From an uncultured Holophagaceae bacterium (GTDB lineage: Bacteria; Acidobacteriota; Holophagae; Holophagales; Holophagaceae): a stretch of 64,000 nt of DNA. A program made the translations under genes and the position numbers. This document shows positions 28,058 through 38,479 of the stretch, piece by piece; the first letter of the stretch is position 1, and every line of letters starts with the position of its first letter. Under the pieces are notes generated by a model. It was given only the letters and a program-made list of their open reading frames with translations. It made no database searches and was not told the origin of the DNA. The stretch is taken from contig CAIWKE010000034.1 in the NCBI GenBank assembly GCA_903913215.1, forward strand, positions 13,483 to 77,482, read 5' to 3'.

Positions 28058-28141
28058 ATCTCGACCATCGGCGACCCATAGATCCCTTAATAGACAATAC
28101 TTCCGGTTGTGGGATGATGATTGACCTTTCCCGGAGTGTCT

Positions 28142-29515
28142 ATGAATCCATCCCTGCTCACCCGTGCGGCCCTGGACCAGTTCGCTGCTGAGAACCGGGC
28201 GGCCTTCGAGGCGGAGCTGAAAACCCTCGTGGAAATCCCCAGCATCAGCGCAGACCCGGCCCGGCAGGGGGACATCCGGCGCTGCGCCGAAGCGGCCCGC
28301 AGCCTCTTCGAGCGCCACGGCGGCAAGGCCGAGATTCTCGAAACCAGCGGCAATCCCCTGGTCCACGGCTGGTTTGGCGAGGATCCCAGTCAGCCCATCA
28401 TCACGGTCTACAACCACATGGACGTGCAGCCCGCCAATGAGCCCGAGTGGACGGCGGAGCCCTTCACCTTCGTGGTGGACGGGGACACCTACCGGGGCCG
28501 GGGCAGCACGGACGACAAGGGTCCGGCGGTCACCGCCCTCTTCGGCGCCCTGGCCGCACGCCGCGCGGGTGTGCCCCTCAACATCCACTTCCTCTGGGAA
28601 CTGGAAGAAGAGATCGGCTCCCCCAGCTTTGAGGGTGGCCTGAATCGCCACAAGGACCGCCTGAAGACCGATGCCATCGTGGTGAGCGACACGGTCTGGA
28701 TCACCCGGGGCAAGCCCAGCACTCCCGCAGGTCTGCGGGGCCTCAAAGGCTTCCGCCTGACGTTGGAGACCGCAGACCACGACCTGCACAGCGGCGTGGT
28801 GGGCGGTGCGGCCCGCAACCCCCTGGCGGAGCTCATCAAGGTGGTGGCCGCCATGATGGACGGCGAGACCGGCAAGGTGAAGATCCCCGGCTTCTACGAC
28901 GAGGTCGTGAAGCCCTCCAAGCAGGAACTGGAGGAGTGGGCCAACGCGGGCTTCAGCGTGGAGACCTTCAAGAAGGATCACATGATCACCGGCATGCGCA
29001 CCGAGGATCCCCTCAAGGTGATGAAGCGTGTGTGGGGCCGACCCACCATGGAAGTCCACGGCGTCGTGGGCGGCTACACGGGCCCCGGCATCAAGAGTGC
29101 CGTGCCCCCCCGGGCCGAGGTAAAGATGAGCTGCCGCCTGGTGCCGGACATGGATGAGCACAAGACCATCGAGCGCATCCGCACCTTCGTGAACCGGAAC
29201 TTCCCCGATGTGCAGTTTCACGAGGAGCACGGCCTGGCCCCCTTCAAGGGCCACGTCACGGGCCCCTACGCCGAGGCCATCAAGGACGCCTACAAGTTCG
29301 CCTTCGATGCCCCCTGCTCCTTCACCCGCGAGGGCGGCAGCATCGGCGCCGTGAAGACCATGGAGGACCTCCTGGGCTGCCAGGTCTTCTTCCTGGGCCT
29401 CAGCCTCCCCAGCCATGGCTACCACGCCCCCAACGAGAACTACGACTGGGAGCAGGCCAGCGGTGGCATGGCGGCCTTCGCTCACTACTTCGAGACCGTG
29501 AGCGGGATCAAGTAG
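28142..29515 (+). CDS. M20-family dipeptidase
   Basis: YNHMDVQPA, GRGSTDDKGP and WELEEEIGS metal-ligand motifs. ATG at 28142. Confidence 0.85.
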   Translation: MNPSLLTRAALDQFAAENRAAFEAELKTLVEIPSISADPARQGDIRRCAEAARSLFERHGGKAEILETSGNPLVHGWFGEDPSQPIITVYNHMDVQPANEPEWTAEPFTFVVDGDTYRGRGSTDDKGPAVTALFGALAARRAGVPLNIHFLWELEEEIGSPSFEGGLNRHKDRLKTDAIVVSDTVWITRGKPSTPAGLRGLKGFRLTLETADHDLHSGVVGGAARNPLAELIKVVAAMMDGETGKVKIPGFYDEVVKPSKQELEEWANAGFSVETFKKDHMITGMRTEDPLKVMKRVWGRPTMEVHGVVGGYTGPGIKSAVPPRAEVKMSCRLVPDMDEHKTIERIRTFVNRNFPDVQFHEEHGLAPFKGHVTGPYAEAIKDAYKFAFDAPCSFTREGGSIGAVKTMEDLLGCQVFFLGLSLPSHGYHAPNENYDWEQASGGMAAFAHYFETVSGIK

Positions 29516-29573: not shown

Positions 29574-30602
29574 CTACCAGAGCGGCTGCATGGGGGTTTC
29601 CTGGAAGACCGGTGCCCGCCCTGAGGGCCTACCGTTCCCATCTTGGCTGGAGAGGCGCAGGATACCCAGATAGGGCGCGGCGCTGGGGTCATAGAGCACG
29701 GTGATGCTGCCGCCCCGGCCCGGACTCCCGCTCCAACCATCACTTCCACTTGAGCCATCGCTGCCGCTGGAGCCACTGGGGGAACCCGACCCCCCGAACC
29801 CACCTCGACCACCCCGCCCCCCGCGGCCCCCGGATCCGCCCGCGCCTCCATCCGCCTTCACCGTTAGATAGCCCCCTTGGGGGTCCACCAGAAACCGATC
29901 AATCCGGTCACCACCTCGCACGCTCACCTGTAGCAGGGGATGGGGGCCAGGCCTGAAAGCCACGTTCACCAGGAGGGATGGCGCGTCGCCACCGGGCCCT
30001 CCATTGTCACCGTCGCTGCCACGGCCTCCATCGGAACCATTGCCTCCCGGGGAGGGGTTGTTGAGGTCGTTGGAACCTGAGCTGCCACTCATGCCATCAG
30101 ATCCAGCCATTCCGTCCATGCCCGAGAAGCCGGGGCTTCCGGAAAAGTCAGCGTGGAAGCCCCAGTCGTACCTCACGGGGATATCCAACTCCGTTCGTAG
30201 TTCCGGGTGACTGGGCACAGTGATGATCAGGTGGGGGGTCCGCCCATCGCTGAGGCGAGGGTCCGAGGGCAGCGAAACCACGCCCTTCGGACTAACCCCC
30301 GCCACCGTGCTAGAAAGCTGGAGATCCTCCCAGAGAACCTTGCCTCCAGGACTCCCCTCAGTGTGCAAAGTAGCACCGTCCGGCTGCACCAAAGTTACGA
30401 CGAGGGCAGCCTTCCCACTGGGTGCCATACCTCCCTCCGGTAGGGTGGCGGATAGGGCGCTGATGGAGGTCTTCTCCAGACGGACCCGCCACCCCATCCA
30501 AACTTGGATTGGTCTGCAACTGAGGCCTATGAGCGCCAGCAACATGCCAACCAGACCCTGCAGGATTCGGCCCAGGCTCGAGACAGGTGGGGATGCGCGC
30601 AT
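29574..30602 (-). CDS. Secreted/anchored Gly-rich protein with two G-X-Y tracts, function unknown
   Basis: N-terminal hydrophobic segment ILQGLVGMLLALIGLSC. Beta-strand-like segments are interrupted by GSPGFSGMDGMAGSDGMSGSSGSN..GGNGSDGGRGSDGDNGGPGGD and by GGAGGSGGRGGRGGRGGFGGSGSPSGSSGSDGSSGSDGWSGSPGRGG. Confidence 0.6.
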   Translation of the reverse strand: MRASPPVSSLGRILQGLVGMLLALIGLSCRPIQVWMGWRVRLEKTSISALSATLPEGGMAPSGKAALVVTLVQPDGATLHTEGSPGGKVLWEDLQLSSTVAGVSPKGVVSLPSDPRLSDGRTPHLIITVPSHPELRTELDIPVRYDWGFHADFSGSPGFSGMDGMAGSDGMSGSSGSNDLNNPSPGGNGSDGGRGSDGDNGGPGGDAPSLLVNVAFRPGPHPLLQVSVRGGDRIDRFLVDPQGGYLTVKADGGAGGSGGRGGRGGRGGFGGSGSPSGSSGSDGSSGSDGWSGSPGRGGSITVLYDPSAAPYLGILRLSSQDGNGRPSGRAPVFQETPMQPLW

Positions 30603-30779
30603 GCTGGCCTCACTTGGTGGCAATGATCTAGCTCCCGTTGAGCTTCTTTACCAAGGGAGGGGCATCTGGCGTATTAGGTTGAGCACCATTCCATCGAACT
30701 GAAGGTCTGACCCGCGTTTCCTGGAAGCTCAATCTCGCCAGGTCCTCAATCACCAGCAGGCTCTACCCTGCTGACTGTA

Positions 30780-31150
30780 GGACATGGACAAGCGGAAAAT
30801 CCATCAACCAGATCCGCACCTTCGTGAATCTGAACCACCCCGATGTGCAGTTCCACGAGGAGCACGGCCTGGCCCCCTTTCAAGGGCCACGTCACGGGCC
30901 CTACGCTGAGGCAATCAAGGACGCCTACAAGTTCGCCTTCGACGCCCCCTGCTCCTTCACCCGCGAGGGCGGCAGCATCGGCGCCGTGAAGACCATGGAG
31001 GACCTCCTGGGCTGCCAGGCCTTCTTCCTGGGTCTTAGCCTCCCCAGCCACGGCTACCACGCCCTCAACGAGAACTACGACTGGGAGCAGGCCAGCGGCG
31101 GCATGGCCGCCTTCGCCCACTATTTCGATACGGTGAGTGGGATCAAGTAG
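30780..31150 (+). pseudogene. Truncated, frameshifted duplicate of the 3' end of the M20 dipeptidase gene
   Basis: 98 of 108 aligned residues are identical to the C-terminus of 28142..29515 (hand count). A compensated +1/-1 indel pair gives APFQGPRHGPY where the intact copy has APFKGHVTGPY. The first ~40 nt are out of frame. About 355 N-terminal codons are missing. Confidence 0.8.
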
Positions 31151-31159
31151 GGTTAGCTT

Positions 31160-31203
31160 CCTTTTCAGAAACGCCGGCCAAGGAACCGGCGTTTCTGAAA
31201 AGG
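31160..31203. terminator. Terminator-like hairpin (diverged duplicate of the one at 29532)
   Basis: CCTTTTCAGAAACGCCGG-CCAAGGAA-CCGGCGTTTCTGAAAAGG. Confidence 0.5.
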
Positions 31204-31330
31204 AAACATACCCTATTTTCTTTCATGAGCGAGACCGCCACCAGTTGGTCTATACAACTCCTGGACCCTATTCCAGGCCAAGCGCCATAAAGCAACCAGA
31301 ACAGGACGCGACTCACCATGAGGCCTAGCG

Positions 31331-34300
31331 CTATTTTATCTGCTGGATCATCACGGTAAAGGCGTAGGGGGCGGAGGAGTGCCCGTTGTTATAATTGCCC
31401 AAATTGTCTCCACCTGTGCCTGTGTAAACCACCTTGACCAGATCGCCAGTGTCCGCTGAGAACATCACGGTGTGACTGTTGGGCGCGAATCCGCTGGCCG
31501 GAGTGACAAACGCGAAAGCCCCTGCGGCGATTAGTGTATTGTTCTTCCGCACCTCCCCAGTGAAAAGAGGGGGGTTGTTACCGCCCTCAGAGATGCTGAT
31601 CGCCTGGGTGTTGACCTGCACCGTTAGGATGTATATCCCCGTCGTCGGCATCGTATAGACGCCAACATTGGAAGCAATACCTGCATTGACTACCGTGTTA
31701 CCTGCTACTAAATCGTTGGTACCAATCCTGACCGAACCGATGGCTGCATCCTGGACCGCTGCCATTGAAGTGCCGCCGGCGGGGGCTAGGCTCAGCCAGG
31801 CACCATTCCCACCATTTGCTGCTGCACTCCAGGTCAGGACCTGACCATCCTGGTTGGTGTTGGCCGTATGGTCCGCAGGTGGCGCCAGGGCCAGGAGCGA
31901 GCTGCCCTTGATGTTCACGTCGTTGGCGTAGATCGTGCTCCAACGGTTGGTGGCGGAACCAAGTGTGGTCGCGTTGTTGGCACCCGGTACCACTTCGGCA
32001 AGCGCATTGACCCATCCAAACGAGCCATTGTTGCCGATGACCATCTGATCGGCCTTGGTGGTCGCTGCTTGGGCGCCAATGGCGATCTGGTTATCGGCGG
32101 TGGGGGCGGTTGTGGTTGCACCGTAACCTAGGAAAATCCCATGGCTTCCAGATGACAAGGGATTGCCCGCACTTCGGCCTACGGCCACGTTTCCAACCCC
32201 AGTCACCGGATCCACGCTGCCCTGCAGCGCGTAGGTTCCAATCGCGACATTTTCGTTTCCGCCCGTGCTCGCCTGTTGGAGCGCCTGATAGCCCACGGCC
32301 ACATTGCTGGAAACGGCACCATCCCCGCCCTGCAGGGTGGCCTGGCCGATGGCGACATTCTGGGCACCGGTGAGTGCATAGCCGGCCACTTCTCCCATCG
32401 CAACGTTGCTACCGCCAGTGGTATTGCTCCTGAGCGCGAAGTGCCCGACACCCACATTCCACTTCCCCGTTGTGTTCGCATAAAGGGCATTGCTGCCAAG
32501 ACCCACGTTTTCTTTGCCTGTAGTATTGGCATTCATCACGTTGATACCGACCGCGGTGTTGTCCGAACCGGATTGATAGATGCTTCCAAGTGAACTTGCT
32601 CCGATGGCCACATTGCCGGTACCGGAATCGCCGAACAAATTTCCCTGCAAGGCGTTGTACCCCATGGCCACGTTGTAGTTGCCCGTGCTCAGGAACATCA
32701 TCGCGTAACCGCCCACGGCGGTATTGTTCTGCCCGCTCGTGAGGGAACTCAGCGCATAGGTTCCAAGCCCCGTGCTATTCACAACACTGCTCGTCATGGT
32801 GAAGTTACCGGCATTCAAGCCAAGGAACGTATTACCTGCACCAGAGCCATTGCCTGACACGCCGCCGAAAGAATGGAGAAAGGGATAGAGCGTTCCACCG
32901 GTGAAGATCTGCACCGCCGAGGATGCTCCCGTGCTGTCTGGAAGTCTGAGGTTGTGCGCAATGGCCACATAGCCCGAATTCGAGTTGGTGATGTCGTTGC
33001 CGCTGGTCGTCCAGGGGCCGCCACCACCAGCGGTAGCCACCCAACTCCGCGCACCAGCCGCGGTCGACGAGAGCACATATCCATCAGCCCCGGGATTTCC
33101 TAAGACAGGCTCCTTCCCCGCCACAGCCGAGGTCACGAAGGCCGTAGTGGCGATCTGGGTGGTGTTGGTGCCACCGGTGGCCGTGGGCGCCGCTGGAGTG
33201 CCTGTGAATGTGGGTGAAGCAAGCGGGGCCTTGACTGCCAGGCCAGAGGCCACAAAGGCTGTCGTGGCGATCTGTGTGGTGTTGGTGCCACCGGTCGCCG
33301 TGGGTGCCGCTGGAGTGCCTGTGAAGGTGGGTGAAGCCAGCGGTGCCTTGCCGTTGAAGGCCGTCCAGTCCGCCGCGCTCAGCGCACCACGATTGGAGGC
33401 CGAGGCGGTCGGCACATTGAGCGTGATGACCGGCGTCGAGGTGCCCGTGGCCACGCTGGAGGACAGGTCTGCTCCTGTGGTTCCGAGCGTCAAGGCCGCC
33501 ACACTGGTGACCGTGCCGCTGCCCTTGGCGTTGAAGGTGGCGAAATCCGAGGCCGCGAGGTAGCCATCCACACTGGAGGTGGCCTTCGTGATGCCAAGGG
33601 TTCCGCTGCCCGTGATCGGGCCACCCGTTAGGGGGCCGGAGGTGGCCACGCTGGTGACCGTACCCGTGCTGCCACCCGCAGCGGTCACTGGTGCCCAGGC
33701 GCTGCCATCGAACTGGTAGAGCCCTGGGGTGCCATCGGACTGGTAGACCAGCAGGCCTGCGGTGGGCGTGAGAATGGCGGCGCGCTGGACAGCAGTCATG
33801 CGCGGGGGCAGAAAGCCCTTGGTGCTACTGGTGAGGTCCAGCAGGGCGCTGGCATCCGGTGTGGCCGTCCCCAACCCCAGCGAACCTGTGGTGAAGACGA
33901 CATTCGAACCCGACAGGGTGAGGGGGCTTGCGCCCGCCGGTCCCATGGCACCCGTGGCGCCGGCAGGCCCCTGGGCGCCAATCACCCCTGGCAGCCCCTG
34001 GGGGCCCACCGATCCCGTGGCTCCTGCCGGGCCTGTGGCACCTGTGGCGCCGGCCGGACCTTGGCCCCCGGTCACACCCGGCAGCCCCTGGGGGCCCACA
34101 GATCCGGTGGCTCCCGTCGGCCCAGCGGGTCCCTGAGGGCCTGTTGCACCGCTGGGTCCGGCAACCCCCTGGGGCCCAGTCGCACCTGTGGCACCCGTCG
34201 CGCCAGTGGCTCCGGTGGCTCCGGTCGGACCGGCGGGTCCCTGGGTGCCGGCCACGGATCCCGCCACCCACTTGGTGCCGTTGTAGACCAGGGCCTGACC

Positions 34301-34810
34301 AGAGGTGGGGGGCGTGGTGGCTAGGTCGAGGGGAATGCCCTGCAGCTTCAGCACCAGGGTCTGGTTCTGGGTACCGCCCAGGTCACCGCTGAAGGAGCCG
34401 GCCAGAGTCCATGCGCTGATGGCCTGGAAGGCGGGAACGATATCGATGTCAGGGGCGAGGGCCTGACCGGATACCGTGACGTGGAGCTTCAGGCCCGCCT
34501 TGCCGAGCGCGGCTGCTGGTAGGGTTGGCATGCCGGTAGCACCCAGCACCACGGAGTAAAGACCCTCGCTCACGGTCAGGGTCTGCGCACCGGAGTTCCA
34601 CAGCTCCGTGCTGGTGCTGTCGAGGATACTGAAGGTGAAGCTGCGCACGCCGCTGACAGCTGTAGCACCCTCCAGCAGCCGTCCTTGATAGGCCAGCGTG
34701 GGCAGCGGTGCGACATCCGCCGCAGCTTCTGCAACCTGGGCCTGGAGGACGGGAACGCCAACGCAGGCAATGAGGGTGGCGATGGTGGGTGTGAGGAAGG
34801 CACGGCGCAT
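31331..34810 (-). CDS. Large secreted fibre protein: collagen-like GXY tract + tail-fibre repeats + YadA-head-like repeats + C-terminal C1q/TNF-like domain
   Basis: Start taken at the ATG at 34810 ([26 protein letters not shown] signal peptide). Modules are described in the findings. Residue numbers follow the 1180-codon track ORF. Confidence 0.85.
33134..33349 (-). repeat. Tandem 39-codon repeat inside the fibre gene
   Basis: [33 protein letters not shown] occurs twice (residues 509-541 and 548-580). The DNA copies are nearly identical. Confidence 0.9.
33932..34240 (-). repeat. Collagen-like G-X-Y tract (~34 uninterrupted triplets, includes a 30-codon tandem duplication)
   Basis: Residues 212-314: [56 protein letters not shown]...GAMGPAG. 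Confidence 0.9.
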
Positions 34811-34869
34811 GGGGTTCACCTTGGACGAAGCGTGGAGAAGGCAGGAATGGAAGGATCGGTAATAGAAGG

Positions 34870-35397
34870 TCACTTCACGGGCGGGACGAAGCCGTGGCGC
34901 ACCTTGATGGCCCCATCGGCGGTGGCGGCCAGCGTCGCCGGGACAGCCTCACCCACCACGGCCCCGTTGGAGACGCCCGTGCCCGGAACTGCCTGCTGGG
35001 CACCGAAGGTCTGCACGAAGTTCGGTGAAGTCACCGCCGGGGGTGGTGGCGCCAGGATGCTGAGGCCGGTGCTGGCGGTGTAGCGCACGTCCTTGGCCCA
35101 CACGGCGTAGATCGTGGCCTGGCCCGGCGTGGCGGAGGCGGTGAACCGCCCGGTGGCCGAGATGGTCCCCGCAGTGGCGGGCAGCACCGACCAGATGGCC
35201 TCGCTGCCCCAGGGCGTGCTGGCGCTGAACTGCAGGGTCTGGCCCGCCACCAGGGAGGGCGTCTCAGGCAGGACGGTCATCCGCCAGTTGGTGGTTCCAG
35301 CCCGGTCGCCGGAGTTATGGGTGCTGTAGCAGCCCTGGACCAGCAGCAACGAGAGCAGCGCCAGGCAGGCGCAGCGCTGATTCATAGGAGCCCCCAT
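34870..35397 (-). CDS. Lipoprotein with bacterial Ig-like (Big_2) domain
   Basis: [12 protein letters not shown] lipobox-like signal. Big_2 pattern [11 protein letters not shown]...[30 protein letters not shown]. The start at 35397 overlaps the upstream stop (TAATG); an alternative ATG is at 35385. Confidence 0.7.
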
Positions 35398-35975
35398 TAA
35401 TAGGTCCAGATGAGGTTGAGGGAGGCCACCCGCGTGGGCTGGTTCTCCTGCCCGTAGCGACTGGCCACAAAGCGGAACTCGGCCCCCAGGTTGGCATTCC
35501 AACGGCGGCCCACGAGGAGGCCCACCCCAGCCCGGGTCCAGCGGCTGGACCCCGAGGGGCTGAAGGTCCCCGTGGGCGTACTCAGCCGGTTGGTGCTGTC
35601 CACGGTCCAACGGATGCCGTAGAGCCCCAGACCCAGGAACCAGCGTTCCTGGTGGAAGAGCTGCTCGAGGCCGAGACTTTCATCGTGCACCCTGGTGTCG
35701 ATTTCCTGGTGAACGGTAGGCGAGTCCTTAATCTGGCGCCCTGCTCCAAACTGCTCCCGATCCAGGCGCAGGCGCAGGGTCTGGTTCACGTAGGAGCCCC
35801 ACTCCAGCCGTGCCCCGAGGCTGGCATCGAGCCCGGAGACGGTGGTCAGCTTGAGGTCCGGGGATGCAGGCACCAGCAGGCCCGCCTGCAGGCCCCACCG
35901 GAAGGACTCCCCGGCGCTCAGGCCGGTCCAGACAAACATCCAACCGACCACCAGTGCCGGAAAAACCTTCCACAT
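35397..35975 (-). CDS. Small outer-membrane beta-barrel protein (~8-strand class)
   Basis: Signal peptide MWKVFPALVVGWMFVWTGLSAGE. Alternating strands. C-terminal aromatic signal (LNLIWTY). Confidence 0.6.
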   Translation of the reverse strand: MWKVFPALVVGWMFVWTGLSAGESFRWGLQAGLLVPASPDLKLTTVSGLDASLGARLEWGSYVNQTLRLRLDREQFGAGRQIKDSPTVHQEIDTRVHDESLGLEQLFHQERWFLGLGLYGIRWTVDSTNRLSTPTGTFSPSGSSRWTRAGVGLLVGRRWNANLGAEFRFVASRYGQENQPTRVASLNLIWTY

Positions 35976-36050
35976 GCCGACTCCACATCCTCGGGTCACC
36001 TGAGGGCAGCAACCCCTATGCAGACGTCATCGGATCAGTGGCAATGTTCT

Positions 36051-37412
36051 TCAGATCTGGGTTCTACGCTGAACGGCCTGTTTTCTACGCAGGGCACCCG
36101 AATCGGGGTAGCTGAGGATGGCGGCGAAGCCGATCAGGCCGAGCAGGGCTCCCGCAACCCCCGCCAGTTCCACGCCGAGAGGTCGGGCCGCGTCCTTGCC
36201 GAAGGCCGCGAACAGGAAGCCCAGAAGCAGCGCCGCCAGGCCATAGGAAAGCTTGGTAAAGAAGCCTTGGACGCCGAAGAACATGCCCTCCCGCTGTTCG
36301 CCGTGCAGTAAAGCATCCTCCTCAGCCAGGTCGGCCACCATGGCGTTGGGTATCACCAGCAGAACCGCCATGGGCCAGCCCAGCAGCACCATCTGGGTCA
36401 GCGCCAGCGGGACCCCCCACGACCCGGCCCGGCTGATGACCAGCCCTCCGGGGAGCAGCAGAGCGAAGCCCAGCAGCGCCGAGGCCAGCAGCACCTTGTT
36501 GGAATGACGCCCCGACAAGCCCTTCAGCATCGCGAAACCCAGGACCGAGCTGACCAGGACCGTGGTCATGAGAATCACCTGAAATCCTTGGGGCTTCTGC
36601 AACAGGACCACCGGATAGTAGGCGATGGTGGCGCGCATGATATTGAAGGCCGTGAAGAGGCAGACCTTGGCGATCAGGTAGAGCAGGAAGGCTCGGTTGT
36701 CCAGGGTGCGCCGCACAGAGGTCCAGAACGGCAGGGCTTCTGGCCGCGCTGAGGCGAAGGGCGCTTCGTCCACCACCATCGAGGGGGCCAGCATCAAGGC
36801 CAGGGCCAGGCCACAGCAGACCAGCACCGCCAGCGTGAAGGAACCTGACCGGGACCAGAGCAGCGGCAGGCCCACCATGACAACCACACCCCCCAGCAGG
36901 GCCATCACCGCCTGGAAGGTCGTCAGTGAGATCCTTTCGCGGTGGGTGCGGGCGAGTTCGCCGATCAGTGCCAGGTAGGGCAGCAGGAACCACGTATAGA
37001 ACATGAAGAACAGGCCCAGAAACACCATCTCCCAGACAAGGTTGAGCGCGCTGGGAAAGCCCTTGGGTGGAAGGAAGAGCAACAGGCAGCAAAGGGAGAA
37101 GGGCAGCGGCCCCGAGAGAAGGAACAAGCGCCGTCGGCCAAAACGGGTCTCCAGACGATCCGACCACCAGGCGACCCAGGGCTCAGTCAGGGCCTGGACC
37201 AGGCGGCCAGAGAGAACAATCAGCCCGGTCAGGGTCAGGCCCAGGAAAAGGGTCTGGTTGCTCACCCGCTCTGGCAGGCCGCACCCGACGGGAGGCAGGA
37301 GGAAGAAGATGAAATACAGGCCGAAGATGTTGTCCAGAATCCCATGCCCCCCGCTCCCAAGGCTGTAGAGCAGGCGCCCGTGCCAAGGCGTTTCCTGGGA
37401 TGCATGGTCCAT
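36051..37412 (-). CDS. MFS transporter, glycoside-pentoside-hexuronide (GPH) cation symporter type
   Basis: 12-TM pattern. N-terminal YSLGSGGHGILDNIFGLYFIFFL and DRLETRFGRRR motifs are typical of MelB/GPH-like carriers. Confidence 0.8.
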   Translation of the reverse strand: MDHASQETPWHGRLLYSLGSGGHGILDNIFGLYFIFFLLPPVGCGLPERVSNQTLFLGLTLTGLIVLSGRLVQALTEPWVAWWSDRLETRFGRRRLFLLSGPLPFSLCCLLLFLPPKGFPSALNLVWEMVFLGLFFMFYTWFLLPYLALIGELARTHRERISLTTFQAVMALLGGVVVMVGLPLLWSRSGSFTLAVLVCCGLALALMLAPSMVVDEAPFASARPEALPFWTSVRRTLDNRAFLLYLIAKVCLFTAFNIMRATIAYYPVVLLQKPQGFQVILMTTVLVSSVLGFAMLKGLSGRHSNKVLLASALLGFALLLPGGLVISRAGSWGVPLALTQMVLLGWPMAVLLVIPNAMVADLAEEDALLHGEQREGMFFGVQGFFTKLSYGLAALLLGFLFAAFGKDAARPLGVELAGVAGALLGLIGFAAILSYPDSGALRRKQAVQRRTQI

Positions 37413-37477
37413 CCGCCCATGGTAACCCTTGAGAACAACCTCTTGATTGCAACAAACTGTTCCTGGAAAGGTAGGCC

Positions 37478-38479
37478 ATGGAGCAACCCCGCACCTCCTG
37501 GCATCTGGACTGGCTCACTGGCCCTCAGCCTGGTTGTGTGCGGTTCGATCGAGGCTGGTCCAACATGTCTGCCACCCCCATTCCCCTGCCCGCAGACTGG
37601 GGCAGCGGCACCATGGAGCTCCATCATCTGGGCCAGGGCATGGACATCTCCCGCATCCAGGTCACCTTCGAACCATCAGTCCTGGGCCAGTCCCTGCCCC
37701 TGGCGGTGGTTCGAGGCACAGTCCCGGAACCCATGTTCGGGGTCTATGCCATCCGGGAAGGGCGTGGCAGCATCCGGGAGAACCGTGTGGGCATGGACTT
37801 TCCCCTGGAGGCGAAGGACTGCCTGTTCCAGCATGCGGACTACCTCGACTTCGAGCCGGTGCTCAAGGCGACCCCGAAATTCGAATCCACGACCATCACC
37901 ATGGGCATGCCCGTGCTCGCCTCCCTGCTGGGGCAGGATGTCGCCCAGCGGCTGTTGGAGAACCTGGGTCTCCGGACCTGTCCTTCGGCCGCCGCCCGTA
38001 CTTTGCCGCCCAGCCTCTTCCGCCTCCTTCATGAAACCCTGCCAGCCGCTCTGACGGACCAGATGCGCATCCTCTTCAGTCAGGCCAAGACCCTGGAGTT
38101 CCTCTGCGCTCTCTCCACCTTCCTGGTCGATGGCCGCCCCGCAGGTAGCTGCCGCCCGGGCATGCCCGCCCTCATGGACAAGCTCCGGACAGACCTCATG
38201 GCCCATGAGGGCAAGGTGCCCATGCTTGGCGAGCTGGCGGAAACCCACGGTCTTTCCGCCCGGACCCTCAACGAAGAGTTCCGTCGTCAGTTCGGGACCA
38301 CCATCTACAACTTCATCCTGGACCACCGCCTGAGCGAAGCCCGCGTGGCTCTCGAGAAAACCGACGTTCCCATGAAAGTCCTGGCGGACCGCCTTGGCTA
38401 TTCCCACGTCAACCACTTCATCAACGCCTTCAAGCGACGCTACGGCGTGTCACCGGGAAGCCTGCGCCGCACGACTTGA
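37478..38479 (+). CDS. AraC-family transcriptional regulator
   Basis: C-terminal double HTH (LGELAETHGLSARTLNEEFRRQFG ... VLADRLGYSHVNHFINAFKRRYGVSP). Divergent from the MFS gene. Alternative start at 37565. Confidence 0.8.
   Translation: MEQPRTSWHLDWLTGPQPGCVRFDRGWSNMSATPIPLPADWGSGTMELHHLGQGMDISRIQVTFEPSVLGQSLPLAVVRGTVPEPMFGVYAIREGRGSIRENRVGMDFPLEAKDCLFQHADYLDFEPVLKATPKFESTTITMGMPVLASLLGQDVAQRLLENLGLRTCPSAAARTLPPSLFRLLHETLPAALTDQMRILFSQAKTLEFLCALSTFLVDGRPAGSCRPGMPALMDKLRTDLMAHEGKVPMLGELAETHGLSARTLNEEFRRQFGTTIYNFILDHRLSEARVALEKTDVPMKVLADRLGYSHVNHFINAFKRRYGVSPGSLRRTT

Follow-up and report, generated by a model that had tools for sequence, protein, structure and literature searches.

Organization of the fibre locus

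The 64,000-nucleotide stretch of Holophagaceae DNA analysed here (contig CAIWKE010000034.1; hereafter the window) carries, on the minus strand, a gene for a mosaic fibre protein in which a signal peptide and a conserved N-terminal base domain (N-domain) are followed by a collagen-like stalk, phage-type fibre modules and a C-terminal tip (Table 1). Directly upstream, on the same strand and with hardly a gap, lie two small genes, designated B and A, which encode a lipoprotein and a predicted small β-barrel of the outer membrane. The fibre protein is probably a long, three-chain, Sec-exported structure of the cell surface, whose base is kept and whose distal part is exchanged between strains.

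The longest open reading frame (ORF; 31331..34873, minus strand) opens at a GTG at 34873, and the ATG at 34810 is the start of the 1159-residue protein. The initial annotation had placed the gene at 31331-34810, and these coordinates are right, because the homologues begin at the equivalent Met (MRRAFL or MRHPFL) and an AAGGTG lies ~8 nt upstream of the ATG; all fibre residues are counted from this codon. The 3480-nt gene was recovered with 0 nt differences and with the same flanking gene order in four independent metagenome assemblies from different samples (L066, L067, L068 and L072), which points to a clonal, widespread population. Together with the alignment of the tip to the very end of another fibre, P0121, these identical copies rule out an assembly artefact or a pseudogene. 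The best homologue, P0001, is 52% identical over residues 1-970. A scan of 30600-37600 for promoters and terminators gave counts no better than those in shuffled sequences.

Table 1. Features of the fibre locus in the window (residue numbers refer to the fibre protein)
Feature	Position	Strand	Extent	Description	Basis
Fibre gene	31331..34810	minus	1159 aa + stop		ORF list, translation
Signal peptide	34739..34810	minus	residues 1-24	MRR, hydrophobic core, LQA/Q (cut at slash)	read from sequence
Conserved N-terminal base domain	34250..34735	minus	residues 26-187, ~160 aa	AYQGRLLE...ELWNSG	
Collagen-like stalk	33926..34249	minus	residues 188-295	36 uninterrupted G-X-Y triplets	regular-expression count
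Post-collagen domain	33635..33925	minus	residues 296-392	KGFLPPRMT...LYQFDGSAW; candidate PF26696 PTL_trimer	
Phage tail-fibre-type repeats	33011..33634	minus	residues 393-600	two 33-aa copies included	PHROG, PDB
NxAxG repeat module	31916..33010	minus	residues 601-965	ends in junction motif	pattern count, tblastn, PHROG
Linker module	31760..31915	minus	residues 966-1017	common to P0122, there with more repeat modules after it	
C-terminal tip domain	31334..31759	minus	residues ~1018-1159	all-β, probably jelly-roll	AlphaFold2, Foldseek
Gene B, lipoprotein	34870..35385	minus	~171 aa	lipobox LVQGC, Big_2 Ig-like domain, C-terminal VRHGFxPP	Pfam, alignment
Gene A, predicted small outer-membrane β-barrel	35397..35975	minus	192 aa	signal peptide, C-terminal ...LNLIWTY	AlphaFold2, Foldseek
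Duplicated M20 peptidase 3' fragment	30781..31197	plus	417 bp	between fibre gene and intact M20 gene (28121-29515)	blastn
Gly/Ser/Asp/Arg-rich lipoprotein gene	29574..30623	minus	~345 aa	long low-complexity region; inserted downstream of fibre gene	
AraC-family regulator	37478..38479	plus		divergent from the MFS-A-B-fibre string	Pfam HTH_18, HTH_AraC

Signal peptide, base domain and collagen stalk

The signal peptide noted in the initial annotation was likewise read by eye and in the family alignment: MRR and a hydrophobic stretch precede a cleavage site of the form xxA/Q, which is kept across the family as AHA/Q, LPA/Q or VMA/Q. Within it, the tetrapeptide LIAC at residues 13-16 (window 34763-34774) resembles a lipobox. 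If it acts as one, the fibre would itself be a lipoprotein, cut by signal peptidase II before Cys16 and anchored through its acylated N-terminus; the pattern L-[IV]-A-C fits a lipobox and is conserved in the fibres of the window and of the related loci L004 and L005. However, the Cys is absent from most members of the family (L001a, L001b, L008 and L043), all of these keep the downstream site of the signal-peptidase-I type, and a signal peptide of 15 residues would be unusually short. We therefore regard a lipid anchor on the fibre as improbable; in the subclade formed by the window, L004 and L005, the LIAC motif could make a lipoprotein and is more likely incidental.

The N-domain follows the signal peptide directly in 101 of the 120 best homologues, in which the modules further downstream differ in kind and order. 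It has no match in the PDB and a single weak match in PHROG, and a pattern scan of the IMG/VR viral contigs found no copy of it.

The stalk matches the Pfam Collagen family (PF01391; E=2.6e-13, 50 bits against a cut-off of 27.2), identifying the protein as collagen-like, and its triplets have mainly A or P at X and mainly T, Q or A at Y. An uninterrupted G-X-Y run had been described before; the run itself stands, with 36 triplets at residues 188-295 instead of the ~34 at 212-314 reported, a numbering that fits roughly only when residues are counted from the upstream GTG. The triple helix of collagen rises by ~0.29 nm per residue, and at this value the stalk would measure ~31 nm. The number of repeats differs between the window fibre and the fibre of L005. 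In another locus, L003 (10106-14757), the second fibre gene is split inside the collagen region, where a run of X is accompanied by a change of frame; the G-X-Y repeats were probably misassembled.

The segment following the collagen was compared with precomputed PF26696 assignments in the first 60 homologues. A phmmer match to the segment and a PF26696 match were found together in 38 of them and were both missing in 17; five had PF26696 only and 0 had the segment only. Since the segment matches coincide with PF26696, the KGFLPPRMT motif very probably belongs to an already defined Pfam domain, and the segment as a whole is probably PTL_trimer. The Pfam set used for the window scan appears to have been without the PF26696 model, hence no PTL_trimer match there. 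The KGFLPPRMT motif, the tail-fibre-type repeat and the two 33-aa copies, all listed in the initial annotation, are present in the translation.

Phage-type modules of the distal fibre

Residues 393-600 match the PHROG tail-fibre families phrog_7032, phrog_454 and phrog_2631 and a solved phage tail fibre in the PDB (9k09, 'Tail fiber protein'; E=9e-4). The module that follows contains 11 repeats of the form N[TV][AG][VMIL]G at residues 696-874, spaced by 16-20 residues. When the distal 767 aa were compared by tblastn with 50,697 phage records, 98 were matched at 32-39% identity, all within residues 662-984. The genes hit carry the annotation tail fibre, tail spike or endo-N-acetylneuraminidase, with examples in Pelagibacter phage HTVC111P (E=9e-24), Prochlorococcus phage P-SSM2 and Bacillus phage SPO1. 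The same block matches the PHROG tail spike family phrog_4636 (E=5e-23). It had earlier been labelled as YadA-head or Hep_Hag-like. Neither YadA_head nor Hep_Hag matches the fibre in Pfam at E<=1, in a scan which does pick up UspA1_rep-type repeats in P0121, and a nine-sequence profile of the NxAxG block retrieved no trimeric-autotransporter structure from the PDB. The matches to phage proteins and these negative results therefore identify the YadA label as a look-alike, not as membership. The broader description of the protein as a mosaic of fibre modules agrees with what was found by Pfam, PHROG, PDB and tblastn, namely collagen, tail-fibre and tailspike-type modules. A homotrimeric fibre, which it predicted, is very probable here, exported by Sec and located outside the cell.

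The end of the NxAxG module marks a junction. In P0001 the S74 intramolecular-chaperone domain comes straight after 'LGSGTNRWATIHA'; in the window fibre the equivalent junction is followed by a linker of ~50 residues and then, where P0001 has S74, by the orphan tip. The order given in the initial annotation, a junction motif and then a C-terminal domain, needs amending, since the linker (966-1017) intervenes and the domain occupies ~1018-1159. A motif LG(S/T)xxxRW..(I/V)YA recurs at module boundaries in the window fibre (residues 951-963, ~31922-31960), P0001, P0122, L003 and L008, and is followed by S74, by further repeat modules or by linker and tip. From its placement, recombination or folding may favour the motif as a junction.

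The C-terminal tip

The tip is close to an orphan. Nothing meaningful was found for it in Pfam or, by sequence and by profile, in the PDB; PHROG gave no match, and the last 210 aa, compared by word index with 5.8e9 proteins, retrieved nothing. One other cluster with this tip, P0121 (E=2.8e-32, 49% identity), emerged when 1.84 billion representatives were searched exhaustively with HMMER; there, too, it forms the extreme C-terminus of a fibre. An AlphaFold2 model based on the two sequences is all-β, with a predicted local distance difference test score (pLDDT) of 52.5 overall and of ~53-85 per 10-residue block in the core. In a Foldseek comparison of this low-confidence model with the PDB, the best matches had target template modelling (TM) scores of 0.42-0.50 and were headed by C1QL3, followed by C1QL1, the C1q domain of Caprin-2, cerebellin, 4-1BBL and ExsFA; CBM6 and enterotoxin jelly-rolls scored about as well as the C1q-like domains. 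Among the BFVD matches of the model, viral proteins named for a 'collagen triple helix repeat' or a 'C1q domain' were over-represented, even though the query contained no collagen. A C1q/TNF-like fold, proposed earlier, is plausible on the strength of these top-ranking folds from a low-confidence model; by sequence, no match in Pfam or the PDB speaks for it.

The contig of P0121 (L065, 4741-12769) carries genes associated with the type IX secretion system (T9SS): genes for a CHU_C protein, a PorP/SprF barrel and a 176-aa Por_Secre_tail protein are directly upstream of the fibre gene. A gene for an Lcl_C-domain protein lies downstream, and the stalk of P0121 has coiled-coil and UspA1-type repeats in place of collagen. 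Judging from the T9SS-associated neighbours, we take the locus to be from Bacteroidota. Because the near-orphan tip is common only to the window fibre and this one Bacteroidota fibre, its distribution suggests that adhesive tips are exchanged across phyla; the shared tip is a new point here.

A large family of fibres with a common base

A scan of 185,579 species genomes for the N-domain gave 55 loci, almost all of them, by record title, from Holophagaceae, Geothrix, Holophaga or other Acidobacteriota, and several metagenome-assembled genomes contained two or three fibre loci. The homologues with a named source are from Geothrix and Holophagaceae. Approximately 70 of the 120 best homologues carry S74, as counted from their Pfam assignments, and others have ALK_LTK_GRD, tail-collar, NHL, BNR or sortilin-type domains at the C-terminus. 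The window fibre is one allele of this large family. Its presentation as unprecedented and unexplained was overstated, because the design is of a known kind, with a parallel in the mosaic adhesive trimer (MAT) fibres and a known route in Lcl (both discussed below), and because the family is large. In the literature, nothing relevant was found on PF26696, on Geothrix collagen or on tail fiber domain-containing proteins with a lipoprotein.

Replacement of the distal fibre between sister strains

The sister locus L005 has the same gene order as the window, with flanks of 88-94% DNA identity and with A, B and the N-domain 87%, 94% and 91% identical, respectively; its fibre has 1310 aa, a different distal part and an S74 end. 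Colinearity with L005 stops at window position 33636 (~residue 392, the end of the PTL_trimer-like domain) and returns only past the fibre gene. Just downstream of the fibre gene, the M20 fragment is 89% identical to L005 15115-15529, and the window from 29563 onward matches the same stretch at 94%. The fragment overlaps an ORF (30824-31150), which the metagenome annotations call as a 108-aa ORF, and looks like a recombination scar from replacement of the distal cassette, marking the other breakpoint. The composition is consistent with a foreign origin of the distal cassette: the fibre gene, its distal half above all, has a GC content of 0.54-0.62 and a GC content at third codon positions (GC3) of 0.63-0.72, a drop located at 31331-34810 and 30001-32000, compared with ~0.65-0.70 and ~0.8-0.9 for the rest of the window. 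Taken together, the alignments indicate that recombination has replaced the distal two thirds of the fibre and left its base conserved, and this clean replacement of a tip at strain level is new here.

The Gly/Ser/Asp/Arg-rich lipoprotein gene inserted downstream of the fibre gene had no match in Pfam, NCBIfam or PHROG. In G. limicola the homologous gene (L004, 7656-8693) is found on the upstream side of the cassette, and L005 has no copy at this site; the gene may be a further mobile or associated part of the locus.

Chromosomal setting

Homology of the middle modules to tail fibre and tailspike proteins, together with the phage-type S74 at the end of most paralogues, would fit a tail fibre, whole or remnant, of a phage, prophage or tailocin, placed in the chromosome by chance. 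The surroundings speak against it. The Pfam assignments of the neighbouring genes are asd, M20 peptidase, MFS transporter, AraC regulator and SDR, and farther genes of the window encode a TonB receptor, acetyl-CoA synthetase and sulfate permease. No phage genes flank the fibre gene here or in the inspected gene tables of related loci (L001-L009), the 64 kb contain no tRNA genes, and no integrase signature was seen. The locus keeps its place between the same housekeeping genes in different species, and each family member inspected carries a Sec signal peptide, something that a fibre assembled in the cytoplasm would not need. With the N-domain also missing from the IMG/VR viral contigs, we reject a prophage or tailocin fibre and consider a phage origin of the present gene product very improbable. 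The possibility, raised in the initial annotation, that the homologues would sit inside prophages was not borne out, as every locus examined is chromosomal.

In L001, L005, L008 and one further locus, but not in L004, an AraC-family gene is called within or beside the cassette. From this position, it may regulate the cassette.

A lipoprotein and a small barrel encoded upstream

No recognized module within the fibre chain accounts for its attachment. In the Pfam scan at E<=1 only Collagen was matched, with no anchor or secretion module: the YadA anchor barrel was not found, and S74 (PF13884), which the same scan finds in P0001, P0004 and P0012, was not found either. NCBIfam gave only sub-threshold, collagen-driven matches to the Lcl and Scl adhesins, neither database matched Por_Secre_tail or CHU_C, and the C-terminus (...FTVMIQQIK) has no LPXTG. 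These searches agree with the initial annotation, which had noticed no anchor barrel, T9SS domain, sortase signal or S74, and they brought up no recognized C-terminal secretion or anchor module that would overturn it. A trimeric autotransporter or a two-partner secretion passenger is ruled out, since the protein lacks a barrel in cis and no gene of the TpsB kind lies nearby; the missing C-terminal sorting domain and the wrong phylum rule out a T9SS substrate. Attachment had, however, been sought only inside the ORF, and the genes upstream are conserved candidate partners, which offer the most likely solution to it.

Gene B encodes a lipoprotein with an Ig-like domain. Its lipobox, LVQGC in the window, reads SLGC, VIGC, GLGC or LLAC in homologues, and the C-terminal VRHGFxPP motif is conserved among them; the Pfam match to Big_2 is marginal (E=7.7e-5, 23.0 bits against a cut-off of 22.8), and PHROG and NCBIfam gave no match. 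Metagenome gene calls begin B 12 nt earlier, so that it overlaps the stop of gene A. Gene A had no family or meaningful match in Pfam, NCBIfam, PHROG or, by sequence, the PDB. Its AlphaFold2 model (pLDDT 90.1) predicts a barrel: all of the top 50 Foldseek matches in the PDB are outer-membrane barrels or models based on porin barrels, the best being OmpA-TM, Ail, NspA and OmpX at TM 0.5-0.58. The family of A comprises 41 clusters, one of which is named 'Outer membrane protein beta-barrel' in UniRef, and a few members match PF13505 or PF02462. The C-termini of the family (...WTY, ...WRF or ...WHF) are in line with its assignment as a small outer-membrane protein (OMP) barrel.

Synteny was counted in those loci of the genome scan that had at least 1200 nt upstream of the fibre gene (n=51). 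In 42 of these the fibre gene is immediately preceded, on its own strand, by a homologue of B, and A is also upstream in 18/51. G. limicola and metagenome relatives keep the order A-B-fibre at the syntenic site, and the triad also stands at unrelated chromosomal sites beside an AraC gene (L008 and another locus). At the same hotspot in L001 (8743-21314) it is duplicated in tandem as A-B-fibre (1351 aa), AraC and A-B-fibre (1549 aa); the second fibre has a different non-S74 end (...LRGQLSIKEIK in the equivalent L003 gene). Holophaga loci have a different OMP-like ORF of ~177 aa in place of A, and G. fermentans (L059) has B only. The counts of 42 against 18 and the arrangements in Holophaga and G. 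fermentans therefore define B and the fibre as the core pair and A as a clade-specific addition. On this synteny, A and B are candidate trans-acting anchor or assembly partners of the fibre, and the missing anchor may be the upstream lipoprotein with the small barrel. The conservation of lipoprotein and OMP partner genes beside such a fibre is new here.

Proposed export, assembly and attachment of the fibre

We propose, as the most probable account although well short of certain, that the protein is a Holophagaceae surface fibre made by the cell and not by a phage, similar to the MAT fibres and attached via B, together with A in the clade that has it. The chain would be exported by Sec. Three chains would then associate, probably starting from the C-terminal jelly-roll tip, which would act in place of the S74 chaperone of the paralogues. 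From the tip, the 36-triplet collagen could zip up in the C-to-N direction, as it does in C1q and collagen X and as has been proposed for Lcl (PMC11162425). The N-terminal base domain would hold the fibre at the cell surface, most probably by docking on lipoprotein B at the outer membrane, whether or not barrel A takes part. The distal two thirds, comprising the tail-fibre repeats, the NxAxG module and the tip, would constitute an exchangeable ligand-binding cassette, swapped by recombination at domain boundaries. The co-operonic products of A and B may also serve outer-membrane passage or assembly. For the passage itself, a small barrel cannot conduct a folded trimer, and by analogy with Lcl the general type II secretion system (T2SS) would be the obvious candidate.

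Several points weigh against this proposal. The link of A and B to the fibre is drawn from synteny. The identities of A, B and the N-domain correlate (r ~0.84-0.88), and we do not count this as co-evolution, because shared phylogeny can explain it. Barrel A is absent from most loci, G. fermentans having B only, and therefore cannot be a universal requirement. As an 8-10-stranded barrel it would also have no pore for a folded trimer. The role of the tip in trimerization is argued by analogy, since the model of the tip is of low confidence.

The absence of A from most loci and its unsuitability as a conduit would fit a route like that of Lcl, in which the trimer forms in the periplasm, is secreted by the general T2SS and sticks through its N-domain directly to lipopolysaccharide or another component of the outer membrane. 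B would then be a periplasmic assembly helper or functionally unrelated to the fibre, and A an ordinary small OMP. A precedent for such a helper is the lipoprotein SadB, which assists the trimeric autotransporter SadA. A precedent for the route is Lcl, which has only a Sec signal, uses the T2SS for its secretion and stays attached by way of its N-terminus (PMC11162425). Against it stand the adjacency of B in 42 of the 51 loci and the duplication of the triad as a unit; T2SS genes were not seen within the window, the rest of the genome lying outside the data. This alternative differs from the proposal above only in the roles of B and A, and we consider it the less likely of the two, yet clearly more likely than a lipid-anchored or phage-derived fibre.

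Docking of the N-domain on B thus remains the preferred mode of attachment. A stronger form of the proposal, put forward tentatively and with more doubt than confidence, is that B, with A in its clade, makes up an outer-membrane module, not described before, that is dedicated to the docking or assembly of trimeric fibres derived from phages. In that case it would be the 'surface element' left unidentified in the work on MAT fibres. The P0121 locus, in which a barrel and a small adaptor also accompany a fibre, offers a suggestive parallel; if the docking module is real, this locus, with its PorP/SprF barrel and small T9SS-tagged protein, would point to a general rule in which a barrel and a small adaptor carry a swappable fibre.

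The attachment of MAT-type fibres is an acknowledged gap, for which the present locus supplies testable anchor candidates, an Ig-like lipoprotein and a small barrel. The same fibre design, with a collagen stalk, occurs in environmentally common Acidobacteriota (Geothrix, Holophaga and relatives), and the distal cassette is visibly exchanged between near-identical strains. Several cultured Geothrix species carry the cassette, and the question is therefore open to genetics.

Comparison with known systems

Phage fibres and tailspikes with S74, of the type found in the K1F endosialidase and in phage T5, have a homologous NxAxG module and homologous repeats, and paralogues of the window fibre keep S74 after the same RW..IYA-type junction. 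In contrast to them, the window fibre has no S74 and has a Sec signal, a non-phage N-domain and a housekeeping neighbourhood.

Trimeric autotransporter adhesins such as YadA, UspA1 and SadA are likewise long adhesin fibres of trimeric type with short Asn/Gly/Ala-rich repeats. Their head repeats have a period of ~14 residues, whereas that of the window fibre is 16-20, and the latter has no YadA anchor barrel, YadA_head or Hep_Hag. BclA of the Bacillus exosporium, C1q and collagens VIII and X share with the window fibre a collagen region and a C-terminal all-β domain of ~140 aa, and a related exosporium protein, ExsFA, is among the fold matches of the low-confidence tip model. Unlike these proteins, the window fibre has ~720 residues of phage-type modules between collagen and tip and no C1q/TNF match by sequence.

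Lcl of Legionella pneumophila is a collagen-like trimer, a T2SS substrate whose N-terminus retains it at the cell (PMC11162425). The two proteins have in common a diderm host, a Sec signal, a collagen stalk, a C-terminal head (trimeric in Lcl) and no anchor in cis. The window fibre is nevertheless no member of the Lcl family (NF046116), since it scores 66.8 bits against a cut-off of 500 and matches over residues 187-294 only, that is, over the collagen. Lcl, for its part, has a helical N-terminus of 30 residues, no phage modules and a different C-terminal fold.

To our knowledge, fibres built from phage parts and encoded by the cell have so far been characterized experimentally only in Bdellovibrio. 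The MAT fibres of Bdellovibrio bacteriovorus (Caulton et al. 2024, PMC10769870) consist of a signal peptide, a conserved β-rich N-domain of ~130 aa and phage-like trimeric stalks; 13 members carry S74 and 8 do not, β-sandwich tips substituting for S74 in the latter, tips are swapped, and the surface partner of the N-domain has not been identified (PMC10769870). The window family shows an analogous arrangement, with a signal peptide and then a conserved N-domain (~160 aa here). It also has phage-fibre-type stalks ending in S74 or a substitute β tip, several copies per genome and tip swapping. The differences are a collagen triple-helix stalk and a PTL_trimer domain in the window fibre, an origin in Acidobacteriota with non-predatory relatives, and a dedicated upstream lipoprotein, sometimes joined by a small OMP and often by an AraC regulator. 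By analogy, we suggest that the window fibre works like a MAT of the non-S74 kind, the closest system described.

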